A stretch of DNA of 64,000 nucleotides from an uncultured Candidatus Saccharibacteria bacterium (GCA_964538815.1 CAZIHL010000002.1:570-64569), one strand, 5' to 3'. Counted from the stretch's first letter, positions 1 through 51,215 are shown. The notes: generated from the letters alone by a model not told the origin. A program made the numbers and translations.

Positions 1-1369
1 AGTGAGTTTTTAAATTGTTTATATTAAGATTTTTTCCATCAATAATATCCTGATATTCACTATCATTACGAATATCAAATAGTAATTGCCCATAAGGATA
101 ATCATTATTTACAAGATATAAGTTGTCATCCCAAGTGGTCATACCTTGATACCAAGCATCTGGAAGACCATACTCATAAGTTTTGATTTCTTTTGGTACG
201 GAACATATTATTATATTTTCTCCATTACTATCATTTTGACCACATTTATCAATCAAAGTATTAAAATTCAAAGAAGATAAATCATAATCTGTAAAAGATT
301 TATTATCAAAAGATTTTTTATAAGTTTTTAATCCGTTTCCAGTCATTATAGATACTAAAATATTACTATTATTTATATTAAAATACATTCCGTTATGATT
401 TCCGTATACTTGACTAAGTTTACCTAAAGATGAGCTTCCAGTATTTAATTTATATAAATTATTTACTTCATAATATGTTGGGGTTGTATAAGCATATACG
501 GTGCCATTATTTAATAAAGATAATTTCCAATATGATAACTCTGAAGAATAAATTCTGCTTCCATAAGTTTCATTTACATCACTTATATAATACCAATCTG
601 TATAAGTATCTAGGAAACCATTTGTAGTTTTGTTTTTAGTAACTACATATGCAACTTTTTTAGCATCAGGTGAAGTGGTTATAAATTTTATATTATCTGG
701 TAAGTTTGCAATATTTAGAAGGTTAGCAGTGGAGCCATGATATTCTGGAACTATTGCAGATACAGTTTTAATCGTATTATCTTCCGAATACTGCATAAAT
801 ACTCTACTTTTTCCTCCATTTTTATCATTCATAAAGTATGCCCTAACTACATTTGGGTAAGATTTTTCTGTAACTTGTACAGGAGAAGATTGAGGATCCC
901 ATAAATCTTTCTCATAAATATATCCAGTCTCGCTATCTACGAATTGTAAAATTGTTTTATTGTCTGTTCCAGTTTTTTCTTCACTAGTTTCTTCATCTAT
1001 ATATTTGTAAGTATAAGTTTTATTATAAAATCCATAACCTGCAACTGGTCTATCCCATACTTTTATTAATCCTTCAAAATAATAATCTCCAATTACACCA
1101 TTCTCATCTTCATTTGTATTGTTATTATTATCTTCATTATTTCCACCAAAAATACTATTAAATAAATTACTAAAGCTAAAAGTAGGTAGACCAGGATTTC
1201 CACTATTGTCAGTATTTGCACTTTCCTTTTTATTAAAAAATAAGAAATAAACAAGTAAACCAAAGACTAATACTGCTAAAGTAATAATAATTATTTCTTT
1301 TTTATATTTTTTAAAAAAAGATTTTGATTCCTCCTTTGGTGTTTGGTTTTGAATTAATTCTTGCTCCAT
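1..1369 (-). CDS. Partial CDS (C-terminus off window): N-terminal single-TM anchored, secreted Asn/Tyr-rich beta-rich protein; last gene of the T4SS-like operon
   Basis: Minus-strand ATG at 1367-1369 (rc of ctccat gives M-E-Q-E-L...), 5 nt from the stop of the upstream gene. Hydrophobic segment IIITLAVLVFGLLVYFLFF after a Lys-rich N-terminus. The reading frame appears open to the window edge and is absent from the ORF track only because it runs off the window. Confidence 0.55.
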   Translation of the reverse strand, partial: MEQELIQNQTPKEESKSFFKKYKKEIIIITLAVLVFGLLVYFLFFNKKESANTDNSGNPGLPTFSFSNLFNSIFGGNNEDNNNNTNEDENGVIGDYYFEGLIKVWDRPVAGYGFYNKTYTYKYIDEETSEEKTGTDNKTILQFVDSETGYIYEKDLWDPQSSPVQVTEKSYPNVVRAYFMNDKNGGKSRVFMQYSEDNTIKTVSAIVPEYHGSTANLLNIANLPDNIKFITTSPDAKKVAYVVTKNKTTNGFLDTYTDWYYISDVNETYGSRIYSSELSYWKLSLLNNGTVYAYTTPTYYEVNNLYKLNTGSSSLGKLSQVYGNHNGMYFNINNSNILVSIMTGNGLKTYKKSFDNKSFTDYDLSSLNFNTLIDKCGQNDSNGENIIICSVPKEIKTYEYGLPDAWYQGMTTWDDNLYLVNNDYPYGQLLFDIRNDSEYQDIIDGKNLNINNLKTH

Positions 1370-1373
1370 ATTT

Positions 1374-2954
1374 TTATCTTCCGTTATATGACCAATGAAT
1401 GTTATCTTTCGTACCTAAATTATTATAAAAACCAACTCCAAATTTACCCCCATTTTCTTTTAACCATTTAAATTCTTCACTTGTACATGTATCTTCTTTT
1501 TTACACATGCCAATAGTTGCATTTGTAAAATCCACAGCCATTCCTGTCATGTGATTACTACAACCAGAAGCACACTCCCCAGAAGTTCTTCCACATAGTT
1601 CTTTCTGGTAGTTTTGAGTTCTGTATGAAGATGTTACTTCTATTTCTTTGTTGAATTTTGCTTTGTATGCCTCATTTAAACTTACTAAACTATCTAAAAA
1701 TTCTTTTTTAACGGTACATCTTGTTGGATTAGCATTATTTTCATTACACTTTATTTTTCCCGACAAACTTACCAAATCTGAAGATTTTAAGTCTTTAACT
1801 AGGGTTGTACAGGCCTGAGACCCATATAGTGATCCACTACCCGTTGATCCTTTACAATCACTAGAAGCTGCAAAAGCTTGTTTTTTTCCATCCTTAGTTG
1901 TTCCTTCACCTGGCCCTCCATTATATGAAGCTATCAAGTTTGCATTTCCAGTGTCAAATGTATACCCTTCTATGTTTTGTATTGTTCCACTAAGAGTGAA
2001 TCCAATAGATGGTCTATTTTTACTTTGATGTAAAGATTGTTTTGATTTTATAACTTTTGCAGCACAAGAAATTTGTTTATAACCAGTACTTTTCCAATCA
2101 GAGTCACAACCCGCACTACTTGCTGTACCATCTAATATTTGCATTAAACCATACGCATTAGCATCACTTTTTACAGATAAACTACTACAAGCTCCAGACT
2201 CTTGTGTACCTATAGCCATAAGAAAATCTTTTGGTATACCCGACTCTGATGCTACTTTAGTAAATTCGGCGTCATATTTTTTACAACCAGAATTTGGACC
2301 ACTTCCTTCCCATGGTTTTTCTTTTTGATATCCTTGTACTTTTTTTACATATTTTTGCGTTTCATCAAAACCTCCTGGATTTATAGGACATTGCCATGCA
2401 TAGGCTGAAGTATAAGCTCCAGATCCTCCTGTTCCACCATTATTTACTCCTTCAATTCTAACTTTACCAGCATATTCTGTAGCCACAGTCCAACCTGTTA
2501 GATCTGGATTAATAAAGGAAAGAATTGCATAAGCAAAAATAAATATAATTAGAGCTGTGCCTGCTGTTTTAATATAACTTCTTCCTTTTGTTTGATCGTA
2601 AATATTATCAAATGTGCCTTTGATCACAGCCCCTTGAAGAAGTCTATAAATAACTAATAAAACAATAGCCACTGCCATTAATGTTAACAAATAATTAAAT
2701 ACTGTTCCCACATCTCTTGTGTTTTGATTATCAAAAGTTTTTACAGTTTCTGATCCATCAAAAGAAGAAACATATTTATAGGTTTCATTAGCTCTAGTAT
2801 ATACATCGCCACTTTCTTCTGAAGGGGTAGAATTTGTAGAGCTAGAAGTCGTACTTGTGACTTCAGTAGAAGTTGGTGTTTGAGAATAAGTGAAATTAAA
2901 GGTTATACTAAAAATTATTAAAAAAACAGAAATGATTATTGATCTTTTAAGCAT
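1374..2954 (-). CDS. Secreted cell-wall hydrolase: lytic transglycosylase (SLT) domain plus C-terminal LAS/M15-type peptidase motif; VirB1-like function
   Basis: Signal/TM N-terminus and Ser/Thr-rich linker. SLT catalytic signature ...AIGTQESG...AYGLMQI... The C-terminus carries SGCSNHMTGMAVDF, matching the SxHxxGxAxD zinc-binding motif of D-Ala-D-Ala carboxypeptidase/VanY-like M15 peptidases. Confidence 0.7.
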   Translation of the reverse strand: MLKRSIIISVFLIIFSITFNFTYSQTPTSTEVTSTTSSSTNSTPSEESGDVYTRANETYKYVSSFDGSETVKTFDNQNTRDVGTVFNYLLTLMAVAIVLLVIYRLLQGAVIKGTFDNIYDQTKGRSYIKTAGTALIIFIFAYAILSFINPDLTGWTVATEYAGKVRIEGVNNGGTGGSGAYTSAYAWQCPINPGGFDETQKYVKKVQGYQKEKPWEGSGPNSGCKKYDAEFTKVASESGIPKDFLMAIGTQESGACSSLSVKSDANAYGLMQILDGTASSAGCDSDWKSTGYKQISCAAKVIKSKQSLHQSKNRPSIGFTLSGTIQNIEGYTFDTGNANLIASYNGGPGEGTTKDGKKQAFAASSDCKGSTGSGSLYGSQACTTLVKDLKSSDLVSLSGKIKCNENNANPTRCTVKKEFLDSLVSLNEAYKAKFNKEIEVTSSYRTQNYQKELCGRTSGECASGCSNHMTGMAVDFTNATIGMCKKEDTCTSEEFKWLKENGGKFGVGFYNNLGTKDNIHWSYNGR

Positions 2955-2986
2955 AATAATTACATTTTAACATATTAAAAGTTTAA

Positions 2987-3760
2987 TTATTTGAATACAA
3001 AATTCAAATTTTCTTCACTAGATTGTAAGGTTTTACTTTTGTTGGTAACTTTTACCCCTACTCCAAAATTATTATAAGCACTTGTAGGTGCAGAATATGA
3101 AAAAATATTCGTAGAATTTGTATTTCCAGGAATTTTATTTACTGACCAAATATATGAAAGATTTGAATCTGTACTTCTATTTGTAGAAAAATAGAATGGT
3201 TCAGCTTTAATATTAAAACTCTCCCCTCTTGATACAGTATAATTTTCATATCTTTTATTTATCGCATTTGCATAAGTTAGTATTGGGTTACCTAGATCTT
3301 TGTATAGAAAAGCTTTAGATACCCTTGGGTAGATAGTTATTCTTTTTTCAGTAAGTAAAGTCTCAAGTGTATTATTTGTATAGACTTTTAATTCTATAAT
3401 ATTTTGATTTACTAATTCATCAAGTGGAAAAATTAGAAAATTTCCACCAGTTTTTGAATAAGTATTACTATAATAATCATTTATTTTCCAAGAATAGAAA
3501 AATTTTGATGCATCAAATGTTCCAGCTGGAGTATTTACTTCTACATTCGCCATAACTTTTATAGCAGCTTCCTCTCCAGGAAGAGGTTTTCCTTCGTAAA
3601 AAAGAGGAACATAACTATCAAGCACTTGCCAATCAAGATTAATATTTGTACTTACCCCTAAACTCTGTGCAGAAACTTTTAAAATAAAAATTTGTGCCAC
3701 AAGTATAAAAAGAAAAAAGATAGTAAAAGAAGTTTGGAAAGATATGTTTATTTTTTTCAT
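2987..3760 (-). CDS. Secreted hypothetical protein (signal peptide)
   Basis: N-terminal hydrophobic signal FFLFILVAQIFILKVSAQS, no recognizable motif. Sits within the operon. Confidence 0.5.
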   Translation of the reverse strand: MKKINISFQTSFTIFFLFILVAQIFILKVSAQSLGVSTNINLDWQVLDSYVPLFYEGKPLPGEEAAIKVMANVEVNTPAGTFDASKFFYSWKINDYYSNTYSKTGGNFLIFPLDELVNQNIIELKVYTNNTLETLLTEKRITIYPRVSKAFLYKDLGNPILTYANAINKRYENYTVSRGESFNIKAEPFYFSTNRSTDSNLSYIWSVNKIPGNTNSTNIFSYSAPTSAYNNFGVGVKVTNKSKTLQSSEENLNFVFK

Positions 3761-3781
3761 TATATATATTATATCAAATAA

Positions 3782-5593
3782 TTACACTCCAGCATTTTCC
3801 TCTTCCCTTCTCTTTTTTGCAGCTAAAAGTTGTTCTGGATTTGTTGTTACGATTTGATCTTCCACATAAGAAGATATAACTTTTATAGCTACATGTTTTT
3901 GCCCAGCAAAAAATATACCTTCTCCTACCCCAGATTGTAATAATAAATATTTTTCTTCATCTGTTAAATTAAAAGTTTTTTGAACCAAATCTATACTAGA
4001 AGGAGATTGTTTTAATAATAATTGCATACTACTATTAGTTATTATAGGTAAACCATACGGAGAACGTAAAAAATCACCAACATCTTGAGTAATAGTAGCA
4101 AGTCCTAAATAGTATTTTCTACCTCTTTTTGCCATACCAAAGAGAAATGATGCGGTATCTTCATTTTTCATCATTATCCAAGCCTCGTCAATAATTAATA
4201 ATCTCTTTTTTAATTCTTTTCTTATTTCACCCCAAATAAAGTGAGTAATAATATACATAGCCACAGGTTTTAATTCATCTTCCATATCACGAATAGAAAA
4301 ACAAATTAATTTTTTATTAATATCTATGTTTGATGGTTGTCCTATAAATCCTGACCATACTCCATCAATATATTTTGATAATCTTTGAGAAATATTTTCA
4401 CTTCCTTCAATACCAGAAAGAATATCAGCAAAATCTTTTAATATTGGGAATTCTATATTTTCTAAACTTTCTGTTTCTGAAGTAATATCTTTTATAGCAT
4501 AAGTCTCGGTAAGAGCTCTATCAACAATAGCATCCTCTTCTGGAGTAAGGCCACCAAGCATTACTCTAATTAAACCAACTAAATTTATAATATTACTTCT
4601 TAAAATATCAGAAATAGACTCATCTTCTCCTGGAGTTGGTAAATCAAAAGGATTTATATGATGATCAGAATTTAATGAAATATCAAAATATCTACCACCT
4701 ACAGATTCAGCCAAATATTCATATTCTTTTTCTGGGTCTATAATAATCACATCAGTATCAAACATTAAGGTTCTTAAAATTTCTAATTTTGTATAGTAAG
4801 ATTTACCAGAACCAGAAACTGCAAATACAGTACTATTATAATTTTCTAAAGAAAATCTATCAAAAAGTATAAGAGAACCATTATGTCTATTTAATCCATA
4901 TAGAATACCTCTATCTGTAGATAAATCAAAAGATAAAAATGGAAAAAAAGAAGAAAGTGGAGAAGTATTTAATTGGTTGGTTATTTTTAATGTATCTAAA
5001 GCAAAAGGAAAAACAGTTTTTAAAGCTTCTGCTTGTTGAAAAAGGGCTGGGCGAATATAAATAAGTCTACTTTCTGTAAGATTTTTTATTTCTGTTTCGG
5101 TTCTTTTTAACTCATCCTCTGTGTCTCCATAAATAGTTATATATAAAGCAACTTCAAACATTTTTTCACTTGCTTGTTGAAGCGAATCTCTCAAATCTTC
5201 AAGATCTTGTAAAGCTGTTTCAAGTTTTGGATCACGAACTTCTCCTTTTTCTTGTTTTGTGTAAATTTGAGACTCTATTTCTACTACTTTTTTTTGAAAT
5301 TTTTTCATTACTTCAGATGTAGCAAGAGGAGTTATGTGTATAGAAACATTAAAAACTTTATCTAAATTTATAATGGGTGCAAGCCAAGACTCATCTAAAT
5401 ATCTCGGATAAGAAATTACAAAAAAACTTTTTGCTATTTTTCCAGACAAATTTAATGATTGTGCTTCTATTTTTACACCAGCTGGGGCTAAAATACTTTT
5501 TAATTCCTCACTCGCTTTATTATAAACCTCATCTTTAGAAGGTTCGCCTATTTGTTTAGTATTTGATTTTAAAAATATATCTAAAAGTCCCAT
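3782..5593 (-). CDS. virB4: VirB4/TrbE/PrgJ-family type IV secretion ATPase, C-terminal ATPase domain
   Basis: Walker A AVSGSGKSY, NPFDL motif, Walker B LLIIDEAWIMM (DEAW typical of VirB4), and GLATITQ motif D. Confidence 0.8.
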   Translation of the reverse strand: MGLLDIFLKSNTKQIGEPSKDEVYNKASEELKSILAPAGVKIEAQSLNLSGKIAKSFFVISYPRYLDESWLAPIINLDKVFNVSIHITPLATSEVMKKFQKKVVEIESQIYTKQEKGEVRDPKLETALQDLEDLRDSLQQASEKMFEVALYITIYGDTEDELKRTETEIKNLTESRLIYIRPALFQQAEALKTVFPFALDTLKITNQLNTSPLSSFFPFLSFDLSTDRGILYGLNRHNGSLILFDRFSLENYNSTVFAVSGSGKSYYTKLEILRTLMFDTDVIIIDPEKEYEYLAESVGGRYFDISLNSDHHINPFDLPTPGEDESISDILRSNIINLVGLIRVMLGGLTPEEDAIVDRALTETYAIKDITSETESLENIEFPILKDFADILSGIEGSENISQRLSKYIDGVWSGFIGQPSNIDINKKLICFSIRDMEDELKPVAMYIITHFIWGEIRKELKKRLLIIDEAWIMMKNEDTASFLFGMAKRGRKYYLGLATITQDVGDFLRSPYGLPIITNSSMQLLLKQSPSSIDLVQKTFNLTDEEKYLLLQSGVGEGIFFAGQKHVAIKVISSYVEDQIVTTNPEQLLAAKKRREEENAGV

Positions 5594-5597
5594 AATT

Positions 5598-6182
5598 TTA
5601 ATTAATATCAGGAGTATTTAACTCATTAGGATTGAATAATTTATAATATAAATTTATTATTTCTTCTGTATCTGTGAGTTTAATATTTAAACCTAGAGAA
5701 ACTAATCCACTTGTAACAATAGAAATTCTTTGCATAAGTTGATTTTGATTTTTAATAAACTCAGCATCTTCCATTCTTTTTGTTGAATTTGTTATAGAAG
5801 GTATATCGTATGGTACGACTATATAAAAATTTTTAGTCATAATATTTTGTTCTTCAGTAAATTTTTGAATAAAATTTATATATTCTTTTATTTGTATTTT
5901 TAATAAATCTTCCTTTATATCTCTTTCCCTATCTTTTAAAAGTTCAATATAGTTACGAATATCTAATTTTTTAGATTGTAAAAATATTTGAATATTAAAA
6001 TCTAATGAATTTAAAAATGTTTGAAAGGCAGTAATAATACCCATCTGTTCGTCCTCACTTTTAAGAGATAAATTTATAGAAGTAGATGAAAGTATGGCTC
6101 TCATATTGCCATCATCTAAAATAACTATACCGTTTCTAATTTCTCTTATAGGTACAAAATTTTGAGTAGCATTTTTTATCAT
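5598..6182 (-). CDS. VirB4 N-terminal domain encoded as a separate ORF
   Basis: FVPIREIRNGIVILDDGNMRAILSSTSINLSLKSEDEQ... resembles the N-terminal domain of Gram-positive VirB4 (PrgJ/TcpF). It ends with TAA only 4 nt before the ATG of the ATPase-domain ORF. Confidence 0.6.
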   Translation of the reverse strand: MIKNATQNFVPIREIRNGIVILDDGNMRAILSSTSINLSLKSEDEQMGIITAFQTFLNSLDFNIQIFLQSKKLDIRNYIELLKDRERDIKEDLLKIQIKEYINFIQKFTEEQNIMTKNFYIVVPYDIPSITNSTKRMEDAEFIKNQNQLMQRISIVTSGLVSLGLNIKLTDTEEIINLYYKLFNPNELNTPDIN

Positions 6183-6199
6183 TTTTTTATTATAACATT

Positions 6200-6697
6200 T
6201 TATATTTTATATTTATCATTTCTTTTTAATAATTCTTCTTTTAAATTTAAATTATTTATTTTTTCTTCACCCAAAATATCTAACCTACTAGATAATTCTT
6301 TAAGTTTTTCATGTGTTATATGCTTAGCTTCTATTTCTTTATTCTTTTTTATTTCTGCTTCTCTTTTTAAATTTTCTATAATTCTAAGCTCACTTTTTTC
6401 TGGTGCTATTTCTTCTTTCTTTTTTATCCAAACATAAGTTTTATTTCCTAATATAAATTTATAAGCAGCCTCTAAAATATCCGCAAAAGGTCTATTGTTA
6501 ATTTTAACAAAAGCCAAAGCTAAAAAGGTACCAGAAAATATAAGTATAAATAAAATAGAAATTATTTTAAAAGGTATTAATTTCCAAAAAATATAAGCAA
6601 AAGCTAAAGCCCCAAGCAAATAACCAAACTGTTTAAATGTAAAAGGTCCAAAAACTTTATCTTCAATATCTAAGAATTGGGGAAGTCTAAATTGCAT
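6200..6697 (-). CDS. PrgI/VirB3-like small membrane protein
   Basis: Two hydrophobic helices (GYLLGALAFAYIFWKLIPFKIISILFILIFSGTFLALAFV) immediately upstream of virB4, the canonical position of VirB3/PrgI. C-terminal charged coiled-coil tail. Confidence 0.55.
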   Translation of the reverse strand: MQFRLPQFLDIEDKVFGPFTFKQFGYLLGALAFAYIFWKLIPFKIISILFILIFSGTFLALAFVKINNRPFADILEAAYKFILGNKTYVWIKKKEEIAPEKSELRIIENLKREAEIKKNKEIEAKHITHEKLKELSSRLDILGEEKINNLNLKEELLKRNDKYKI

Positions 6698-6727
6698 AAA
6701 TATATTTTAACATTAATAATATATTTT

Positions 6728-7843
6728 TTAGATAGTTTCTCTATATGGATCAAAATTTTCATTATCAACATTATTTTCATTATATTCATCATTTTCTAAA
6801 AGCATTCTATTATAAGCTGTATTTTTAGTTTTTTGTATTTCTACTTCTTCAATACCTCTTTTTTCACGAAGAAAATTTAAATCTGCATTTTCATTTTCTT
6901 TAGATAAAAGCTTTTCTTTTAAAGTGTCAGCAAATTCTTTACTTAAATTTACAGTATTTTCTTGAGCATTTTCTATATTTTCTTTTTCTGATTCATCTTT
7001 AATATTTGATAATTCTTTTATTTTTTCCACTCTTTCTATTTCTTTATTTTCTTTACTTTTTGTTCTTTCTAATCTTTCATCTTCTTCTTTTTTTATTTGA
7101 GCCATTCTATCTTTTATTTTATCTATATCAGAAACATTTTGTAAGTTTATTTTTGCCAAAAGAGAATCCCTGTTAAACTCTTGTTTTTTTTCTTTTTCAA
7201 TTTCTTTTTCTTCCAAAATAGAATTTTTTATTGGTTTTTGTAATTCTCTTTCTTTATATTGTATAATAGGTGAATTTTTACCATTTAAATTACCGGTTCT
7301 TTCAAGTAATATTTTTCTTAATTCTTCCTTTTCAGCGGCTTCCTCCTTTTCTTTTAAGGTTAAATGTCTAATTTCTTTTTTTTCTTCTATTTTACTTTCT
7401 AAAACTTGTTTACGAATATCAGATAAAATGTAAGCGTCTATATTTTTCATTATCATACCCGCTGTAAAAGATTCTATAAGTATTCCGCTAGATCTAAAAC
7501 TTTCTATAAGAGTGTCTTTTGCTGAACTAATTGGTAAAATACCAACTAAAATGGATATTGTTATATTTTCAATTATAATTTTTGCTTTATCTTCATCTAA
7601 TTTTTCGATTTTACAAATAAGCTTTACATTCTCTTCTAATTTATCTCCTAAAATATAGTTTTGTATGACAGGAGAAGCATTTTTAAAAGCATTATCAAAT
7701 TGATTAGTGATTATGTCGTCATTATTTATAGATTTTTTTTGAGGATCAAGAAAATCATAAGAAGCTGTTTCTTCTTGCTCTTGGTTTTCTATATTTACAT
7801 TTTCTAGTATAGAATTGTTTTCTTCAATTTTGTCTTGAGGCAT
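6728..7843 (-). CDS. Acidic Glu/Lys-rich coiled-coil cytoplasmic protein, unknown function, in the T4SS-like operon
   Basis: 371 aa, highly charged EK-rich heptad-like sequence, no TM apart from a central hydrophobic patch. Confidence 0.5.
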   Translation of the reverse strand: MPQDKIEENNSILENVNIENQEQEETASYDFLDPQKKSINNDDIITNQFDNAFKNASPVIQNYILGDKLEENVKLICKIEKLDEDKAKIIIENITISILVGILPISSAKDTLIESFRSSGILIESFTAGMIMKNIDAYILSDIRKQVLESKIEEKKEIRHLTLKEKEEAAEKEELRKILLERTGNLNGKNSPIIQYKERELQKPIKNSILEEKEIEKEKKQEFNRDSLLAKINLQNVSDIDKIKDRMAQIKKEEDERLERTKSKENKEIERVEKIKELSNIKDESEKENIENAQENTVNLSKEFADTLKEKLLSKENENADLNFLREKRGIEEVEIQKTKNTAYNRMLLENDEYNENNVDNENFDPYRETI

Positions 7844-7903
7844 AAATAATAAATGAGACCTTTTGTCTCATTTATTATATCAAATATTTTTTATTTTATT
7901 TTT

Positions 7904-10900
7904 TTATCTATTTATATAATCGTTTCCATCAAGATTATCTTTTCTTGTAGATTTTACATTTACTTTTTTTTCTACTTTTTCTGGTTTAATATTTGTTCTT
8001 ACAGGTTCTATTCTACCTACCGGCATACTTTCCATCCTTAAGTTATGTGCCATTTCTGATAATGCTCTTTGACTTTGATTTTGCATAGAGTTTCCACCTA
8101 TTTCTGCAACTATATTTGGTTTGGTATTTTCTTCAGGTTTTATTACATCTATTTTAGAATTGCTTTCAGTTCTTGCTCTATTTATTAAAGATATATTTTT
8201 TAAGGTGTTTGCATAATCTTTAGTTGTTACCGTAAGATCTTTTATATCTTTTGATATAGACTCTAAATTTTCTCTTATTTTTTGCGTATTATTTGTCTGA
8301 TTTTTTGATCTATTTTTTTCTTCCAGGTCTTGTAATACTGTCTTTTGATACTGGTCTGATGTATATCTTTGATTTTCTTCTTTTCTTAATTTATTCTCTT
8401 TTTTAAGATTTGTTTCTATATCTCCTCTTTTTTCTTCTAGAGCTTTTCTCCTGTTGCTAATTCTGTCCGCAAGTTCTTTATCTAATATTTCTTGATTCAT
8501 AACTCCTCCATTATTTTTAATCTTATTTCCCAAGCTAGCATTATGTTTTTCAAACTCTTCTTTATTTTTTGATTGTGCTTGACTAAATTGTAATCTGCTT
8601 TTTAAAGATTCTTGAGCAGAAACATTTTTTATAGAAGGAGCTGGGACACTGTTTTGATTTTGAGTTGTATTATTTGTATTTTGGGCAGTATTTTGATTTT
8701 GAGTTATATTATTTGTATTTTGATTCTGTTGGTTTTGGGTATTTGTTGTATTATTTGTATTTTGATTTTTCTTGTTCTTTTCTTCAAATTCAGATATTGA
8801 TTTCATTATTTTTTCTTTTCTTTTATTTTCATCAGGCTCATCTTTAATAATTTTATCAAAATCTTCTTTTAATTTACTGTTTTTTGGTTTTTCTAATTCT
8901 TTACTAAAATACTCTTCACCTTTTCCATTTTCTTTAAAATGATTATTTATAAATTTGATCATTTTTTCTTTTCTCTTGTCTTTGTCAGATTCTTTATTAA
9001 TTTTATTAAAATTACCCGCTAATCTATTATTAGTATCTATTTTTTCTTCAAAAGAAAGATTTTTATTTTTAGATTCTAATCTATCAGCTACCCTATTTCC
9101 GTTAAATATAACTGAAGTACCAGTCCAACCAGATCTTAAATTATTTATATGTTTCCCTTTTGCATCATCATTTAATCTGTCATAAAAGTGTTTCTCTTTC
9201 GCATATCTCTTTCTAAAAGAAGAATCTATTGTGGTATTTCCACCCTTACCAAAAGTCCCTTTTGTTGCAGCTTGAAAAACTTTTGAATTCCTAGCATCAA
9301 AAGTACTATTTTGAGCATAGTCTTGTAGTTTTAATGCTAATCTGCCTCGAGTGCCTCCTTTGGCTATCCATCCATCAAATTTCTTACTATTTACCACTTT
9401 TCCCGCACCCATTCGTAGAGCTTTTGAGGCTCCACCAAAAGCCAGACTACCAATAGTACCAGAAATTTTTCCTGAAACTTTTGCACCAATTTCTCCACTT
9501 AAGTTTTTCGCTGTTGTTATTGCGAGTTGTAGGATAATTATAGAAATAACACCAGATATAGCAGCACCCGTCAATTGTCCAGAAATATTTTCTGTAGTCA
9601 AGGCAGAAGTATTTTGTATTAAGGCACTACCAGCATCACCAACTTTCATCGCTATAAGTAGTAAGAATAAAAATATAGGCGCCATAATTGTAGCATTGGT
9701 AAAATATTTAATTACCATATCTCTATATTTATCTATATAACTATTTATGCCAGCTGGCAGTAGCATAACTGGAGAGAAGATCATGCACAGAACAAGAGTT
9801 ATACCACGAATAAATATTAATATTGCTGCTTGGAAAAATATTATTATTGCTACACCAGTTATTAATACTTGTATCCCAAATGCTGGAACGGAATCCCAAG
9901 CACCTAAACTTATAATTTCTTGACTTTTTAAGGAAGGATCTCCAATAATTAATCTTTCCATACTAGAAGCAATACTTTGATTTGGATTATGTAAAGATCT
10001 ATAGATATATATTGAAAATACATTTGCTTGATCAATTAAAAACCCTACAATACTAAATGAAAAGTATACAAATAATGCAGTAAATAAAATCTTAGGAAGA
10101 ATTTTTTGTATTTGAGCAGTGTCATTATCTATCAGCATTCTGATAATGTAATAAAAGACAATTGGCAATAGAAGTGAAGTAACAAGAGCCAAAATTACCT
10201 TTCTCCACACTTCATAAGCACCAGAATTACTAACTAAGTCGCTAAAATTATAAACACTAAAACCCATTACCCAGTCAAAAAGCTTTTCAGATAAAGTTAG
10301 AATCATTTTGAATAAAGAATTTAAACCTTGCAAAAGCATATTTATCAAATATGCAACTATACTACAATTTGTAGCTCCAATAAATGTATCCCAAAAGCCT
10401 GCAGTAGGAGAACATTGTTTTACTGTTGACGTTTGTGCCGCTCCTCCAGTCTCTGGATCTTTTATCGGTTCATTTTGTTCATTTATAATTAAAGGAAAAT
10501 CTCTACCTTTTCGACTAACTTTTCCATAAACTCCCCCTGTTGGATTGATCTCGTCTTCTCTTAGTTTTTCTTCTTCTCCTGACCAATTCCAAGGACCTCC
10601 GTCGTAAGACTTATTTATCATTTCATTAATAATTTTAGAGGTTTCTGTATCTAGATTCTGGTATTTATCTTGAATAACTTTTAGTTGTTTATATAGATAT
10701 ATCCTTCTTTGTCTAACAAGTATTATTTTAAAATCATCAAATCCGTAAATCTCTTCTACATTAAGTACATCATTATATAAAGATTGAAAACTTGTGGTTG
10801 TTGCACCAACCATACCAGTATAAGTTTTTGTATTATCTATTATTTTTGTAAGTTCTGCAATAAGAGGTGTTGTAGTAGCATTTACTTTAATTTGTGTAAT

Positions 10901-11293
10901 TTTATCAGTATAGTTTATTTTTACTGATTGAGAATATTCTTTAGTAAACTCTTCTGAGTATTTTGTTAAACTAGTAGTAATAAGAGTTTTTATTTCAGAG
11001 GATGTTAGAAGTATGTCTGAGTCAGAATAAAAATAACATCCAGTATTTGCCTTATTTAATTTATCTATAGTTATAGAGTCATTTACTGGAACAGTATTTA
11101 TGTACACTTGAGTTCCTTTTATTATGTAGTCAATATTTAATTTTGAATTGCCTGCCCCTTCACATTTTTCTCCTGAATGAATATATACAGAAGCTTTAGA
11201 AATATTTATATTAAAAGTAAAAAATAGAATAACGATCCAAAATACTTTTAATATTTTTTTAGAAAAAATATCAGAAAATAAATTTCTTTTCAT
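7904..11293 (-). CDS. VirB6/TrbL-like polytopic membrane protein with N-terminal secreted domain and ~500-aa Asn/Gln/Lys/Glu-rich cytoplasmic tail
   Basis: Signal peptide, ~300-aa ectodomain, at least 6 predicted TM helices in the central region, then a long low-complexity tail with an internal KDKRKEKMIKFINNHFKEN / ENKRKEKIMKSISEFEEKN duplication and a QNQNTNN tract. Confidence 0.6.
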   Translation of the reverse strand: MKRNLFSDIFSKKILKVFWIVILFFTFNINISKASVYIHSGEKCEGAGNSKLNIDYIIKGTQVYINTVPVNDSITIDKLNKANTGCYFYSDSDILLTSSEIKTLITTSLTKYSEEFTKEYSQSVKINYTDKITQIKVNATTTPLIAELTKIIDNTKTYTGMVGATTTSFQSLYNDVLNVEEIYGFDDFKIILVRQRRIYLYKQLKVIQDKYQNLDTETSKIINEMINKSYDGGPWNWSGEEEKLREDEINPTGGVYGKVSRKGRDFPLIINEQNEPIKDPETGGAAQTSTVKQCSPTAGFWDTFIGATNCSIVAYLINMLLQGLNSLFKMILTLSEKLFDWVMGFSVYNFSDLVSNSGAYEVWRKVILALVTSLLLPIVFYYIIRMLIDNDTAQIQKILPKILFTALFVYFSFSIVGFLIDQANVFSIYIYRSLHNPNQSIASSMERLIIGDPSLKSQEIISLGAWDSVPAFGIQVLITGVAIIIFFQAAILIFIRGITLVLCMIFSPVMLLPAGINSYIDKYRDMVIKYFTNATIMAPIFLFLLLIAMKVGDAGSALIQNTSALTTENISGQLTGAAISGVISIIILQLAITTAKNLSGEIGAKVSGKISGTIGSLAFGGASKALRMGAGKVVNSKKFDGWIAKGGTRGRLALKLQDYAQNSTFDARNSKVFQAATKGTFGKGGNTTIDSSFRKRYAKEKHFYDRLNDDAKGKHINNLRSGWTGTSVIFNGNRVADRLESKNKNLSFEEKIDTNNRLAGNFNKINKESDKDKRKEKMIKFINNHFKENGKGEEYFSKELEKPKNSKLKEDFDKIIKDEPDENKRKEKIMKSISEFEEKNKKNQNTNNTTNTQNQQNQNTNNITQNQNTAQNTNNTTQNQNSVPAPSIKNVSAQESLKSRLQFSQAQSKNKEEFEKHNASLGNKIKNNGGVMNQEILDKELADRISNRRKALEEKRGDIETNLKKENKLRKEENQRYTSDQYQKTVLQDLEEKNRSKNQTNNTQKIRENLESISKDIKDLTVTTKDYANTLKNISLINRARTESNSKIDVIKPEENTKPNIVAEIGGNSMQNQSQRALSEMAHNLRMESMPVGRIEPVRTNIKPEKVEKKVNVKSTRKDNLDGNDYINR
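8640..8800 (-). repeat. In-frame ~39-bp imperfect tandem repeat (about 3-4 units) encoding the Asn/Gln/Thr tract of the VirB6-like protein
   Basis: ttttgattttgagtt(g/a)tattatttgtattttg recurs at 8652 and 8691 with further degenerate copies. This corresponds to the QNQNTNNITQNQNTAQNTNNTTQNQN stretch in the protein. Confidence 0.6.
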
Positions 11294-11325
11294 TTTAGTA
11301 TTTTACCATGAGAAAAGGAAAAAAA

Positions 11326-11356
11326 TTAAAAAACCCCAAATCCTGGGGTTTATTTT
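11326..11356. terminator. Intrinsic terminator/attenuator hairpin between the 831-aa secreted protein gene and the VirB6-like gene
   Basis: aaaaaccccaaatcctggggtttattttttt: a CCCCA/TGGGG stem with T-tracts on both strands. Confidence 0.5.
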
Positions 11357-11372
11357 TTTGTTTTATTATTTA

Positions 11373-13868
11373 TTATTCCGGTGAACAGAAGTTTCTACCT
11401 GCATTTATTAAGTCTTGTTTTTGTGTTGCATTTTGACATTGGCGTATGAGAGAAGGATCAGTCGTTAATTGGCAGTCTTTTTCTACGGAAGCTACAACAT
11501 CTACACAATATGCGTCCATTTCTGATTCTGACGGTAATTGCATACTTAATTGTTGTGCATAATTATTTAGTAAGCTTGTCATAACCTCATCATCACATAC
11601 AGTATTTTCAAGTCCTAAAGTATTACAGAATTTTAATTCAGACCAACTTTTTGTATTATCTGGATCTAATACGTTTACTACATTTTTTGTCCCAAGCATT
11701 GGAATTTCTGGAGAAACATCTTCTTGTTTAGACATTCCATATCTTGGGAGTAATGTTGACGATAGAGTATTTTCAGATTTTTTACCAAATAGTTTTGATA
11801 ATGTAAAAGATCTATTGGCACCTTTTTTATAAGTATTCCAAGCCCGCACTCTCAAATAGAATACATTTTGACTAGTAAAAGGTCCTTCTCTCTCATCTTT
11901 TGTTGGTATTAATAGTTTACTATTTCCCGCTTCATCATTATTTGATGAAGTAGGGTCATTATGATAGTCTTGATATCTAGGAGTATAATTCCATATTGAC
12001 AGCATACTAGCATATTCTTTTTGTGTTAATCCTTTACCTAGTACGGATTCTAAAATCTCCTGATTGTCTTCTGTTCGACTGTCTGTGCTTTGGAATTCTT
12101 TTAATAGTTTTTCCATTTGTTGCTGATCATAATTATTTTTAGCCATATCTGTAATAAGATATCTTATGTCTTTGGTTATAGTAATTAAAGCTTCACTAAG
12201 TCCTACTACAGCTTGTTGAGTGTTATTAGCAACCTGTGTTGCTTTTCTCGCTTTTTTACCACCACCAAATAAATTTCCTATAGGATTAAAAATGGATAAG
12301 ATAACAGCATCTCTTTTTGCACTGTCTGCGACCTGGCTTGTAACATCTATAGAGTCGTTTCCTCCACCAATAGCTAGTACTAAGAATGTGTAAGTAAATA
12401 CTTCCTCATTTAGTTTTGTAGTATTTAATACATTTATATCATTATACAATTTAATTCTGTCTTTTAGATCATCTATAGTGTATTTAGTTGTTGTACCATT
12501 ATTATAATCTTGTTGTGCTTGATTTGCATCAGCATATAGTTGAGATTGTGCATTTTGAGAATCCACTATATTTTGTAAATTATTAACAAGTCTTGAATAC
12601 GGATTATCTTCCCTATTTAATGTCATATTAGTATTTTTTGCACCAATATTTAATACTCCTGAAATATTGTTCATGATATTACTAGCAGCACTTAAACATG
12701 AATTAATCAATCCTGTGTTTGTTTGAGTCGTACCCTGACCAGTCCATTTATCATTAGATCCATTATTTTGACATTCTTTCTTTTTATTGTTTATGGCTGA
12801 TGCTCTTGCAAGCATAGAGAAATATGGACCAAGTAGAGAAGCTGCTGTCCTATCTTTTACTACGGTACCACTTTGTTCAGGCACACTATCTTGACTATAA
12901 CAAGCTCTCTCTAAGCTACTACTTGCTGCTGGATCATACTTTACTTTCTTTCCATTTTTATCAAAACATACTTGTTGACCAATTGTTAATTCTGTAGCTT
13001 CTACTTGCTTTGAAGCCATGTCTTCAGCCGTTTGTTTTTTAGAGAGTACTCTTGAAAGAGTTGATGAGATTACTCCACTTGCAGTATTTGCTGGATCGTA
13101 TAGTGCTGCATCTGTTTTTTCTCCTCCATATCCTGCTTTTGCAAGTCCTGTAAAGGTTGCTTGATCTTCAGCAGACATTATAGATACAGCAGAAGAATTA
13201 CATAATTTATCAATATCTACATTTCCAACTGCTGGTTTTGGCTTTGTAAAAGTAGAAGGCTCACCATTTTTAATAATATTTTTTAATTTTGGATCACTAC
13301 ATATTTCATTTCTAGCGATAATAGGAAGATTAAAAGATATAAGCTTTCCAGCCGCAGTATCCGCAACATTTTTTGCAAAGTCCGTGATTTGTTTTTTAAT
13401 TTCTCCAGAATATATTGAAGTATTTTGTGGCTCTTTAAAATCATTAATCGCTTTTTTAATTTCATTTACTCCTGTTTTATCTATATAGTTTTTAAGATTT
13501 GTAATAACTTGATTACCATCAGTGTTTATATTTATACCTATTCCTTGATTGCCGGTCACTACTTTCAAAGCTGTTTCAGCGTAATTCAAAATTTGATCAG
13601 ATCCAATATTTTTTGCGAAAGTTGATAAGTCAAAATTCTTTACAGTTTGAACTACTCCTTTAGCAGACTGGTAAGTATTATATAGAGTCTGTGCTGTTGC
13701 TATATAATCTTTTATATCCATTTGCCCATCCCATATTTTTTTAGCTGTATCTTGTCCAAAGATTAAAGGTGTAAAAGGATCAACAGCATAAGTTTTTTCT
13801 ACTTTTATTATAAGAATAAGAATAAAAGTAGTAACTAAAATTATTTTTTTGAAATTATTTATTTTCAT
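11373..13868 (-). CDS. Large secreted protein (831 aa), unknown; possible surface or pilus-associated component of the cluster
   Basis: Signal peptide LVTTFILILIIKVEKTYA. Gln/Asn/Thr-rich with scattered Cys. Followed by a terminator hairpin, which suggests higher expression than the downstream genes. Confidence 0.5.
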   Translation of the reverse strand: MKINNFKKIILVTTFILILIIKVEKTYAVDPFTPLIFGQDTAKKIWDGQMDIKDYIATAQTLYNTYQSAKGVVQTVKNFDLSTFAKNIGSDQILNYAETALKVVTGNQGIGININTDGNQVITNLKNYIDKTGVNEIKKAINDFKEPQNTSIYSGEIKKQITDFAKNVADTAAGKLISFNLPIIARNEICSDPKLKNIIKNGEPSTFTKPKPAVGNVDIDKLCNSSAVSIMSAEDQATFTGLAKAGYGGEKTDAALYDPANTASGVISSTLSRVLSKKQTAEDMASKQVEATELTIGQQVCFDKNGKKVKYDPAASSSLERACYSQDSVPEQSGTVVKDRTAASLLGPYFSMLARASAINNKKKECQNNGSNDKWTGQGTTQTNTGLINSCLSAASNIMNNISGVLNIGAKNTNMTLNREDNPYSRLVNNLQNIVDSQNAQSQLYADANQAQQDYNNGTTTKYTIDDLKDRIKLYNDINVLNTTKLNEEVFTYTFLVLAIGGGNDSIDVTSQVADSAKRDAVILSIFNPIGNLFGGGKKARKATQVANNTQQAVVGLSEALITITKDIRYLITDMAKNNYDQQQMEKLLKEFQSTDSRTEDNQEILESVLGKGLTQKEYASMLSIWNYTPRYQDYHNDPTSSNNDEAGNSKLLIPTKDEREGPFTSQNVFYLRVRAWNTYKKGANRSFTLSKLFGKKSENTLSSTLLPRYGMSKQEDVSPEIPMLGTKNVVNVLDPDNTKSWSELKFCNTLGLENTVCDDEVMTSLLNNYAQQLSMQLPSESEMDAYCVDVVASVEKDCQLTTDPSLIRQCQNATQKQDLINAGRNFCSPE

Positions 13869-13887
13869 ATATTTTTAAATTAAAGAA

Positions 13888-14745
13888 TTATAATCCAGAA
13901 CTTCTAAAATAATTGTTAAAAGAGTCAATTATACTAGATATATCACTATCAAATTTTTGTTCAAAACTTTCTCCATTATTTAAAACATATTTAGCAGGAT
14001 CTGTGTCTATATAAAGTAAAGATTTTATATAGACATTTTGTTGCGATATAAGATTAATAAGTTGGAGCTGATATGTGGCACCAGTACTTGTAGTTGGTAT
14101 AGAAATAAGATCGTTTATAAAAGAATTATTTATGGCTATCTTTTTTAATGCGTTAGATGTTATGGCCGCTTTCATACTTACAATATTTTCTTCAGAAGGA
14201 TTGCTAGAATATTGTGAGATATCTGTGAGATTCAAATTTTGAATAGATTTTTTATAGTTTGTAAGTGCTCTATTTATATCGGTATAATATTCTCTTATAG
14301 ATTCTAAATCATCATTTCTAATGACATTTAAATCTTTTTCTGTGTATATTTTACCTTTGGCTTGTTTTTGATATTCTAAAATTATATTTGCCAATATTTG
14401 TCCTTTGGCAGTAGGATCTGTTAAACCATTTTGGTCAAGGAACATATTAGTTAATAGTAGTGATTGAGAAAGATCTTGAGTTAAATTATGGTCTATACTA
14501 TTTGTATAGTCTACAGAACCAATATCTCCATCTTCACTCAAGTCTAACCCATAATCAGCGGCAATTTGGTCTATATTAAGATAAAATTTTCCATCTTTGT
14601 GGACACTTCCATACTTACTTGGTCCTGTGACATTAATAAGTATTGCAATAAGTACAGCCATTACACCTATTGCGTATAGGTAAGTTTTTAAACTTACATT
14701 GGATAAGACTTCTCGCAATCTTGTCCAAATATTTTCATTTTCCAT
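13888..14745 (-). CDS. Bitopic membrane protein (N-terminal TM, extracytoplasmic domain), first gene of the operon; VirB8-like topology, by inference only
   Basis: TM helix LYAIGVMAVLIAILINV near the N-terminus and a 285-aa size. No motif recognized. Confidence 0.4.
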   Translation of the reverse strand: MENENIWTRLREVLSNVSLKTYLYAIGVMAVLIAILINVTGPSKYGSVHKDGKFYLNIDQIAADYGLDLSEDGDIGSVDYTNSIDHNLTQDLSQSLLLTNMFLDQNGLTDPTAKGQILANIILEYQKQAKGKIYTEKDLNVIRNDDLESIREYYTDINRALTNYKKSIQNLNLTDISQYSSNPSEENIVSMKAAITSNALKKIAINNSFINDLISIPTTSTGATYQLQLINLISQQNVYIKSLLYIDTDPAKYVLNNGESFEQKFDSDISSIIDSFNNYFRSSGL

Positions 14746-15617: not shown

Positions 15618-15794
15618 GAGGGTATTGTAGCATTAAAGCAGAAAACTTTGAAAATTTAAAAGTAAAATAGATTGACATTAAAAACAAATAAATGTTTTTG
15701 AGAACTGACGACGCTCAGCAGAGTCTAGGAAGTTTGAAAAAATATTTTTTGTTTTTTAGAAAACTTTTGGAAACTTTGAAAGTTTAACAAAAAA

Positions 15795-22425: not shown

Positions 22426-22508
22426 AAGAAAAAGATTTTATATAAAAATTATATCATAAAAAGAAATTATGAAATTAAAAGGACAATATTTTAATATTGT
22501 CCTTTTAA

Positions 22509-23054
22509 TTATTTTTTATAGTTTGTTTTTTTATTTATACGCTTTACACCTTTATGAAAAATAATAAATTTTTCTGGATTTTCTGACATGTCTATAAAAT
22601 CTTCACACACATCACGAAGTCTAGAAGAAGTAGATCTGCCAAATGATATCACTTCTACTTGAGTAAAGTTTTTTAAATACTCTACAAGCGGTTCAAAGTC
22701 ACCATCTCCAGTAGCTAAAATAACAGTATCTACTTTTGTTGCTAATCTAATAGCATCAATAGCTAAACCTACATCCCAATCACCTTTTTTGTTTCCACCT
22801 AAAAATACTTGTAAATCTTTTGTTTTTGTTTCAATCCCTATTTTAGTTAATGCATCAAAAAAGTCTTTCTCGTCTCCTGCTTCTGTTTTTATAACATAAG
22901 CAATAGCTCGGATAAGTTTTCTACCAGATAATGCTGTGTCTAGGATATTTTTAAAATTTACTTTTGCATTATATAAATTTTTTGCACTATGATATAGATT
23001 TTGAGTATCTATAAATAAAGCAACTCTTTGCTCTTTATGTTTAATAATTGACAT
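22509..23054 (-). CDS. NYN/LabA-like (PIN-related) domain protein
   Basis: VALFIDTQNLYHSAK ... VDTVILATGDGDFEPLVEYLK matches the NYN/LabA (DUF88) acidic-residue pattern. Confidence 0.7.
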   Translation of the reverse strand: MSIIKHKEQRVALFIDTQNLYHSAKNLYNAKVNFKNILDTALSGRKLIRAIAYVIKTEAGDEKDFFDALTKIGIETKTKDLQVFLGGNKKGDWDVGLAIDAIRLATKVDTVILATGDGDFEPLVEYLKNFTQVEVISFGRSTSSRLRDVCEDFIDMSENPEKFIIFHKGVKRINKKTNYKK

Positions 23055-23084
23055 ATATTTGTTATATAAAAATTTATTTAGTTA

Positions 23085-23172
23085 TAGAATTTTTCAGAAA
23101 ACAATCTATGATGCTTCGGCGTAGACCCCCTTTGGGGTAAAGACGAACTGAAGAAATTGGTTTCTGAAAAAT
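23085..23172. other. Nested inverted-repeat structure downstream of rpsO (complex terminator or small structured RNA)
   Basis: Outer 14-bp stem tttcagaaaacaat / attggtttctgaaa enclosing a CCCC-N5-GGGG hairpin and a gcttc...gaag stem. Confidence 0.4.
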
Positions 23173-23258
23173 CCTGAATGTTTTTAATATTAAAATTTAA
23201 ACCTATTTAATTATATCAAGATAATAAAAATATCTTCATTATAATGAAGATATTTTTA

Positions 23259-23525
23259 TTATGCACGGAGCCCTAGTGTTTTTGACACTTTCTTTAAAGA
23301 TGTCGGTTTATTTTTTTCTAAGTATTTTATATGTTTTCTTCTATCGGCAACCATTTGGATTAGACCTCTTCTTGAATGGTTATCTTTTTTATGTATTTTA
23401 AGATGAGAAGTAACCTCTTCAATTCTTCTTGTTAAAAGAGCAATCTGCGATTCAGCAGATCCTGTATCAGTACCATGAAGTTGAACTTCTTTTATAGCAT
23501 TAGCCTTTTTTCTTTTTGTAAGCAT
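23259..23525 (-). CDS. rpsO: 30S ribosomal protein S15
   Basis: HLKIHKKDNHSRRGLIQMVADRRKHIKYL is the S15 signature. Confidence 0.9.
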   Translation of the reverse strand: MLTKRKKANAIKEVQLHGTDTGSAESQIALLTRRIEEVTSHLKIHKKDNHSRRGLIQMVADRRKHIKYLEKNKPTSLKKVSKTLGLRA

Positions 23526-23631
23526 ATTTATAATTAATTATCTTGACTTAAATAAGTTTTTATATCATATCACACTTTACAAAAAAATGCAAGTCTTAAA
23601 TACTTTAATTTTAGTATGTTAAAATTAATCT

Positions 23632-24654: not shown

Positions 24655-24728
24655 GTTTTGAATTATATAAAAATTTTTAGTTATTTTTATCTAACCACAT
24701 ATTTTTGTTTCTATGTTAAAATATTTTT

Positions 24729-26677: not shown

Positions 26678-26681
26678 ACAA

Positions 26682-51213: not shown

Positions 51214-51215
51214 AT

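Follow-up and report, generated by a model that had tools for sequence, protein, structure and literature searches.

A 64,000-nt stretch of DNA from an uncultured Candidatus Saccharibacteria bacterium (GCA_964538815.1, CAZIHL010000002.1:570-64569; hereafter the window, with a GC content of ~28%) begins with ten consecutive minus-strand open reading frames (ORFs) at positions 1-14745, numbered here g1 to g10 in the direction of transcription. These genes raise the question of what purpose is served by a type IV secretion system (T4SS) that is encoded without recognisable conjugation genes. A first-pass annotation, made from the sequence alone, had described ten tightly packed genes encoding a stripped-down T4SS of the Gram-positive type and had suggested a possible role in host contact or in effector or DNA translocation, as opposed to conjugation. 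All ten ORFs are present as described, with intergenic gaps of 4, 32, 21, 4, 17, 30, 60, 79 and 19 bp, and the analysis presented here supports the proposed reading. Because that reading matches the published view, the system is already known: the locus is the published chromosomal T4SS of the Patescibacteria (PMC12102498). More specifically, the cluster very probably represents the Paceibacteria version of that system, derived from monoderm conjugation machinery of the mating-pair formation FATA (MPF-FATA) type.

Gene order, core components and chromosomal setting

A search of species-representative genomes for relatives of the window VirB4 returned 547 stretches, the best 80 of which were taken as comparison loci, and gene families for the cluster were built by iterated hidden Markov model (HMM) searches over the ORFs of these 80 loci. 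All of them come from metagenome-assembled genomes (MAGs) of Patescibacteria, mostly labelled Paceibacteria or Parcubacteria, and their VirB4 proteins are 64-86% identical to that of the window. The genes follow the colinear order UvrD-KsgA-g1-(g2)-g3-g4-PrgI-TrsD-VirB4-g8-g9-g10, which is complete in 24 loci; nearly all of the incomplete cases are contig-end truncations or local duplications, and the order PrgI-TrsD-VirB4 is kept in 75-77 of the 80. Since homologues occur in the same order in 80 other genomes, the ten ORFs are not chance ORFs, and the conservation of the cluster as a unit in relatives, which the first-pass annotation had set as a check, holds across this set. In the window ksgA lies directly upstream of the cluster, and the ksgA-uvrD flank is common to dozens of species; in relatives, dnaA-dnaN-like ORFs (assigned from their N-terminal sequence only) lie ~1.3 kb downstream of g10, a position beyond the left end of the window. 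Identical flanks and colinearity together indicate that the cluster is, judged by its sequence context, a vertically inherited chromosomal unit. In line with the first-pass annotation, no type IV coupling protein (T4CP, VirD4) or relaxase match and no VirB9, VirB10 or VirB11 was found among the ten cluster proteins and the 28 other window ORFs scanned, so that, within the window, the locus combines the lack of both conjugation proteins with the conserved position near dnaA and ksgA that characterises Patescibacteria T4SSs.

The 603-aa ATPase carries the motifs by which it had been assigned to the VirB4 family (GSGKS, the Walker A motif, at residue 261; NPFDL at 314; DEAW, the Walker B motif, at 469) and matches the NCBIfam family NF045971 conju_CD1110 with an E-value of 1.3e-110 and 370.9 bits, over a cut-off of 325. 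The next-best families are the VirB4 of a Mycoplasma integrative and conjugative element (ICE) and then TraC; Pfam P-loop_TraG is matched at E 1.8e-22, and the MPF-T profile VirB4_CagE reaches 94 bits only. By these profile scores the protein is related to the MPF-FATA (monoderm) class. The alternative that the ATPase belongs to FtsK or HerA was rejected by the same searches, in which the HerA central domain DUF87 scored 27 bits against 371 for the VirB4 family and FtsK families were not listed.

The first-pass annotation had also placed a PrgI/VirB3-like protein directly upstream of VirB4. Its identity stands, with the 165-aa protein matching Pfam PF12666 PrgI (E 2.5e-9, 38 bits, cut-off 27) and tblastn detecting PrgI in 75 of the 80 loci, but the adjacency does not, as a gene for a 194-aa protein, left undiscussed by that annotation, lies in between. 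The latter matches NF041427 TrsD/TraD (E 2.3e-9), Pfam TraC_F_IV over positions 39-176 and, at their N-terminal parts, the VirB4 profiles NF045975 and NF045971. From these matches it is identified as the N-terminal domain of VirB4 placed in a gene of its own, as is the case for TrsD/TraD of plasmids from staphylococci and enterococci. A sequencing frameshift splitting one long ATPase gene was ruled out, because the TrsD-like gene is a separate ORF in 77 of the 80 loci; in the window, its stop codon and the 4-nt gap can be read directly. A TrsD-like protein and PrgI/VirB3 adjoining virB4 are both features of the Patescibacteria T4SS.

The 1129-aa protein g3, previously proposed to be VirB6-like, consists of a signal or anchor sequence, an ectodomain of ~300 aa, six transmembrane (TM) segments predicted by a simple hydropathy scan at aa 366-592, and a long hydrophilic tail rich in Lys, Asn and Gln. 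It has no match in current Pfam or NCBIfam. The identical database protein and 13 of 19 homologues, however, bear a precomputed PF19590 TrbL_3 match that is marked weak, in two remote homologues most of the Pfam TrbL/VirB6 profile is covered by a match at E 0.003-0.01, and a Pfam scan of the g3 family gave weak TrbL matches in 2 of 40 members only. When the core of g3 was searched against the database, the single sequence gave two matches and an alignment query was more productive. A structural model of moderate confidence (pLDDT 65.8) returned TrwI/VirB6 as the sole high-probability Foldseek match (0.85), at an E-value of 0.39, which is not significant. Several sequence matches, all weak, agree with the stronger result from the fold, and g3 is accepted as a putative extended VirB6, so that the window has a VirB6-like polytopic protein near virB4, as do other Patescibacteria. 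PrgI/VirB3 and the extended VirB6 form the cytoplasmic-membrane translocon of the system.

The hydrolase-fused pilin domain and the accessory proteins

The protein in the VirB1 position, g9, had been read as a secreted bifunctional cell-wall hydrolase. Both enzymatic domains exceed their Pfam cut-offs (SLT, aa 233-360, E 2.7e-7; VanY/M15, aa 415-509, E 1.6e-8) and display the motifs TQESG at 250, SSYRT at 442, HMTGMAVD at 468 and HWSY at 520. The protein is not simply secreted, however: a signal peptide is followed by a two-TM, VirB2-like pilin domain at ~aa 82-148. The window protein itself matches PF18895 T4SS_pilin (E 0.028) and the ICE pilin-like family NF045849 (E 0.023) below threshold, over the same residues. 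Among 50 positional orthologues, PF18895 is matched in 40 (best E 4.7e-10) and TrbC/VirB2 in three, and an iterated profile of the pilin domain recovers 70 ORFs in the comparison loci. A VirB2-like pilin near virB4 is therefore found at the level of the family, not by the window protein alone. The C-terminal extensions of the family vary by lineage and include VanY, M15_4, SLT, SLT_3, NlpC/P60, lysozyme, Amidase_5 and CHAP domains, with the window-type M15 domain restricted to the 6-7 closest relatives.

Several comparison loci depart from the window in this region. Two paralogous pilin-domain genes of the g9 family flank g10 in L006 (12824-13636 and 15010-15999), L020, L063 and L071, where the window has one. 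Between VirB4 and g8, four loci carry an extra ORF of 128-190 aa with at least one predicted TM segment (L022:11861-12247, L032:11817-12224, L037:11751-12323, L058:11793-12212); this ORF, a possible further pilin-like gene, has no counterpart in the window. In L003, a MAG labelled Saccharibacteria whose VirB4 is 85% identical to that of the window, VirB4, VirB6, g9 and g10 are each split into several ORFs (L003:4442-7624, L003:10001-11824), through either pseudogenisation or assembly error.

Five further conserved proteins, g1, g2, g4, g8 and g10, are co-inherited with the core in fixed order. Two of them, g1 and g10, are N-terminally anchored, as had been noted. The 285-aa g1 had been put forward for structural comparison with VirB8, for which it is the best positional candidate; its modelled ectodomain is an all-helical bundle, not an NTF2-like fold, and this identification was rejected. 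A Pfam scan of the g1 family found TSP3 repeats only: a bacterial TSP3 (calcium-binding) repeat lies just past the membrane anchor in 10 of 41 family members, the window g1 not being one of them. The last gene of the cluster wherever its family occurs (59 of the 80 loci), g10 has its TM segment at residues 26-44 and no Pfam or NCBIfam match; when its family profile is run against the Protein Data Bank (PDB), TolB is matched weakly but consistently (best E 0.006), and g10 is probably a TolB-like beta-propeller, on weak evidence from sequence profiles. The protein g8, with a hydrophobic, signal-like N-terminus, directly follows VirB4 and belongs to a family present in 72 of the 80 loci. The g8 profile matches the Ig-like phage protein Hoc in the PDB (E 5e-4) and repeated W/G/P columns are conserved, which weakly suggests an Ig-like protein.

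Located between VirB6 and PrgI, g4 is acidic, as previously stated (pI 4.9), Lys/Glu-rich and devoid of a signal peptide, and its family occurs in 68 of the 80 loci. It combines a conserved N-terminal domain with an almost invariant DPYRE motif at the C-terminus, within the last nine residues, in which D365, P366, Y367 and E369 are each at least 90% conserved among 48 sequences. Outside this motif, the C-terminal half is of low complexity and poorly conserved. No PDB or Pfam match was obtained for g4, including in the family-wide Pfam scan. The large g2 is a secreted, fast-evolving protein with 12 Cys residues that was detected directly in four loci only, and by sequence in two of the 24 complete loci; secreted proteins fill its slot in most loci. 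A profile of distant g2-slot proteins matches the close relatives L002 and L001, the window g2 being absent from the matches reported, and one slot member matches DUF4141. No known family was found for g2 in Pfam, NCBIfam or PDB profile searches. N-terminal motifs of slot homologues, such as GVGDIV.DP, had raised a VirB5/TrbJ-like tip protein as a candidate, which the same three profile searches left unsupported. Against PDB sequences, the profiles of g1, g2, g3 and g4 yielded no usable match.

Gene coordinates, transcription signals and neighbouring genes

Table 1. Features of the T4SS cluster and its immediate surroundings, in window coordinates.
Feature	Position	Strand	Remarks
g10, N-terminally anchored extracytoplasmic protein	<1-1369	-	456 aa within the window, where the gene starts at 1369 and runs past the left edge; ~15 aa missing relative to 471-aa orthologues
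g9, signal peptide, pilin domain, SLT and VanY/M15	1374-2954	-	526 aa; VirB1 position
g8, secreted, weakly Ig-like repeats	2987-3760	-	257 aa
VirB4-family T4SS ATPase, core and C-terminal P-loop domain	3782-5593	-	603 aa
TrsD-like, VirB4 N-terminal domain as its own gene	5598-6182	-	194 aa
PrgI/VirB3-like small membrane protein	6200-6697	-	165 aa
g4, acidic, without signal peptide	6728-7843	-	371 aa
g3, putative extended VirB6-like polytopic protein	7904-11293	-	1129 aa
Terminator-like GC hairpin and U-run, between g2 and g3	11331-11351	-	
g2, large secreted Cys-rich protein	11373-13868	-	831 aa
g1, N-terminally anchored, all-helical ectodomain (model)	13888-14745	-	285 aa
Example -10-like upstream regions	11294-11310, 6698-6715, 6183-6199, 3761-3781, 2955-2975, 15618-15640		

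The hairpin reported after the 831-aa gene was recovered: a 9-bp stem with four GC pairs is followed by a T-run, with a folding energy of -19.4 kcal/mol (z -2.0). The structure looks like an intrinsic terminator; L001, L002, L006, L014 and L024 have comparable hairpins in the equivalent position, and a simple scan detected one in 14 of 61 loci. Downstream of the window hairpin lies TGGTAAAAT, the end of which is 6 nt ahead of the g3 ATG. In g5, g6, g8, g9, ksgA and uvrD, too, this extended -10-like motif precedes the ATG, ending 6-9 nt before it. Across the 52 window genes, none has a Shine-Dalgarno-like motif 4-15 nt upstream, and the motif TGnTAnnAT ends exactly 6 nt before the ATG in 11 and within 6-9 nt in 15. 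This pattern suggests leaderless-type transcription starts in the window, several of them inside the T4SS cluster. Given the terminator-like hairpin and the -10-like motifs near start codons, the presumed operon is probably several transcription units with leaderless-type starts, as far as can be predicted from the sequence.

Nearly all of the other window ORFs scanned are housekeeping genes, encoding KsgA, UvrD/PcrA, an M23-LysM peptidase, ComM, an Xer-type recombinase, PGK, TIM, NusA, trigger factor, RNase Y, the CCA enzyme, RecJ, ComEC, EF-Tu and a ribosomal protein; four had no family match. Cumulative GC skew reaches its minimum at ~24.0 kb, where gene orientation flips from minus on the left to plus on the right (~22500-24700) and where the Xer-type gene is located, and no DnaA-box cluster was found at this minimum. 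Four further arrangements were observed. ComEC (49672-52193, +) is encoded as two ORFs 2 nt apart, one of 513 aa with the Competence domain and one of 325 aa with the metallo-beta-lactamase domain. Two overlapping ORFs of 391 and 440 aa at 25553-28004 (-) match no Pfam family at E 1e-5. A 1020-aa protein at 54965-58027 (+), with two PG_binding_1 domains and a Listeria-Bacteroides repeat, is likely to be a wall-bound surface protein. A 333-aa ORF at 29781-30782 (-) contains a triosephosphate isomerase domain only in residues 188-330 (profile positions 96-243); its N-terminal 187 residues may reflect a mis-called start or a fusion.

Proposed function and comparison with known systems

In the model that we propose for the cluster as a Patescibacteria T4SS, the VirB4/TrsD ATPase would dock via PrgI on the VirB6 platform and power the building of a stalk or short pilus that crosses the wall and is made up of pilin-domain proteins, while the tethered hydrolases would open the cell wall locally. 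The envelope proteins would build or tip the external part and touch the host cell, with the hypervariable g2 as a candidate specificity determinant. Most likely, the system serves an epibiotic or host-dependent lifestyle, by exporting proteins to the host cell or taking macromolecules from it.

Several points weigh against this interpretation. The function ascribed to the cluster derives wholly from homology and from experiments in another class (Saccharimonadia), and the window organism has no known host. No VirB8-like component was identified in the cluster, where g1 is helical and g8 and g10 are weakly Ig-like and TolB-like. The weak sequence signal and moderate model of g3 count here too, as does the sub-threshold pilin match of the window g9; moreover, a pilin domain bearing a globular extension of ~380 aa may not polymerise and could be a membrane anchor only. 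Finally, genes for a T4CP or relaxase could lie in other parts of the genome: the Patescibacteria survey reports that VirD4 homologues lie far from virB4 in many genomes and that T4CP genes are rarely nearby (PMC12102498).

A more ambitious version of the same reading would make the window cluster a distinct Paceibacteria subtype, with a hydrolase-fused VirB2-like pilin domain that has lineage-swapped C-termini, and with the proteins g1, g2, g4, g8 and g10 standing in for VirB8 scaffold, adhesins and free pilin array as a new wall-spanning host-contact module, with g2 as the determinant of host specificity. We consider this possible but doubtful, and advance it tentatively.

Three rival explanations of the cluster as a whole were weighed. 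The one that survives best is an uptake machine comparable to Helicobacter ComB or Sulfolobales Ced, which would import host nucleic acids or other macromolecules and export nothing. Nucleotides are not synthesised de novo in Patescibacteria, reviews have speculated about a T4SS pilus as a route of uptake (PMC12857230), and a 2026 preprint ties VirB4 to macromolecule transfer in an RNA-feeding parasite. The window VirB4 does show a CedB-like match (NF041017, E 4.6e-9), but its score of 35 bits compares with a family cut-off of 700; no Ced or ComB partner families were detected, and no nuclease or nucleic-acid-binding component was recognisable in the cluster. In Southlakia epibionticum, loss of ComEC abolishes competence while viability is kept; DNA uptake for natural transformation is therefore not the reason why the T4SS is essential there. 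Sequence does not reveal which way transport runs, and this explanation is judged unlikely.

Far less probable is an envelope or division machine acting on the cell's own wall, in which the pilin-like domain would be a mere anchor for the hydrolases and nothing would be transported between cells. The fusion of hydrolase domains to such an anchor, the TolB-like protein in the cluster and the adjoining replication genes would all suit it, and the essentiality reported in Saccharibacteria would equally fit a housekeeping role. Against it, VirB4, VirB3 and VirB6 are known together only from T4SS-type translocons, the TolB similarity is weak (E 0.006), and in Saccharibacteria the genes are reportedly essential when the epibiont grows in co-culture, with pilins that are free-standing and themselves essential.

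The least probable rival, a conjugative or mobilising T4SS of an ICE that delivers DNA to other cells with a relaxase and coupling protein encoded elsewhere or too divergent to be recognised, can appeal to the conjugation ATPases (CD1110, Mycoplasma ICE VirB4, TraC) that are the closest curated families, to a TrsD, PrgI and hydrolase typical of Gram-positive conjugative plasmids, to VirD4-like genes elsewhere in many Patescibacteria genomes and to a tyrosine recombinase gene ~9 kb off, but the lack of a relaxase and T4CP among the scanned ORFs together with the fixed place beside ksgA and dnaA-dnaN indicates that the cluster is not a conjugation device, and relaxases are rare in Patescibacteria (109 homologues in 103 genomes; PMC12102498). 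The recombinase in question, the sole one in the window, is the Xer-type gene at 23632-24654, which lies among housekeeping genes and contradicts the first-pass remark that no integrases were seen. In place of the variable insertion site and boundary integrase of a mobile element, the same housekeeping flanks recur in dozens of species, the pattern expected of vertical inheritance, and on this conserved chromosomal context an ICE or other mobile element was rejected.

The preferred reading of the cluster as a Patescibacteria T4SS can be compared with characterised systems. The TrwI/VirB6 of plasmid R388 (PDB 7O3V), compared along with the "extended VirB6" proteins, is only 12% identical to g3; no VirB5 partner was identified in the window, and the organism has a monoderm envelope. 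Closer likenesses are found among the T4SSs with which Gram-positive bacteria conjugate, for which pGO1/pSK41 Trs (TrsD and TrsE), pIP501 Tra, pCF10 Prg/Pcf and Clostridioides CTn2 (CD1110) were compared. Shared with these are a CD1110-family VirB4, a separate TrsD-like N-domain protein, PrgI, a polytopic protein of VirB6 type, a wall hydrolase of two domains anchored in the membrane (as in PrgK and pIP501 TraG) and the lack of VirB7, VirB9, VirB10 and VirB11. Unlike them, the window lacks a relaxase, T4CP, oriT and any plasmid/ICE context; M15/VanY, not CHAP, is the second hydrolase domain; the NTF2-like VirB8 homologue (PrgL/TraM/TcpC) was not found in it; and it possesses a VirB2-like pilin domain, which those systems lack.

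The homologous locus of S. epibionticum ML1 (SEML1_0005-0019), a T4SS without coupling protein and relaxase, was shown by transposon sequencing (Tn-seq) to be essential in co-culture (Wang 2023, Cell, PMC10633639). It too adjoins replication genes (recF is SEML1_0003, and the locus starts at SEML1_0004/0005; PMC10633639) and shares with the window a core run of an exported Ig-like protein, a lysozyme-type hydrolase, VirB4, a small protein at the TrsD position, PrgI and large VirB6-like proteins, together with PF18895 pilins. Of the two, only S. epibionticum has six free-standing genes for pilins, a pair of large VirB6-like proteins and a protein that is NTF2-like (VirB8-like); in the window there is one pilin domain, fused to SLT and M15, together with a single VirB6, no recognisable VirB8, and the extra genes g4, g1 and g10. 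Essentiality has been demonstrated for the Saccharibacteria locus alone.

The closest correspondence is with the T4SSs surveyed across Patescibacteria (Quinonero-Coronel 2025, Microb Genom, PMC12102498). That survey describes a VirB4 clade that is monophyletic and related to MPF-FATA, TrsD in abundance adjoining virB4, PrgI/VirB3, VirB6 and PF18895/VirB2-like pilins, VirB1 homologues linked to virB4 specifically in Paceibacteria, and a location close to dnaA, dnaN and ksgA. A 2025 review treats these systems as an established new superfamily branch and discusses, speculatively, the pilus as a conduit for signals or uptake (PMC12857230), and a 2026 preprint reports tubular structures, possibly T4SS pili, at the parasite-host interface. 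Few machines are implicated in the life of these ultrasmall, host-dependent bacteria on other cells, and the Patescibacteria T4SS is one of them. Compared with the surveyed systems, the component set of the window is the same and nothing essential differs; the locus is not a new kind of system, but a clean and compact Paceibacteria example with ten colinear genes. What it adds is incremental: the pilin-hydrolase fusion and the conserved set of five accessory families (g1, g2, g4, g8 and g10) in fixed order, neither of which was noticed in the sections of the survey that were consulted, evidence against g1 as VirB8, and a recurring terminator-like hairpin. For a class with few cultivated members, it provides a testable list of components, comprising the pilin-hydrolase fusion, the putative extended VirB6, the TrsD split and five proteins of unknown family.

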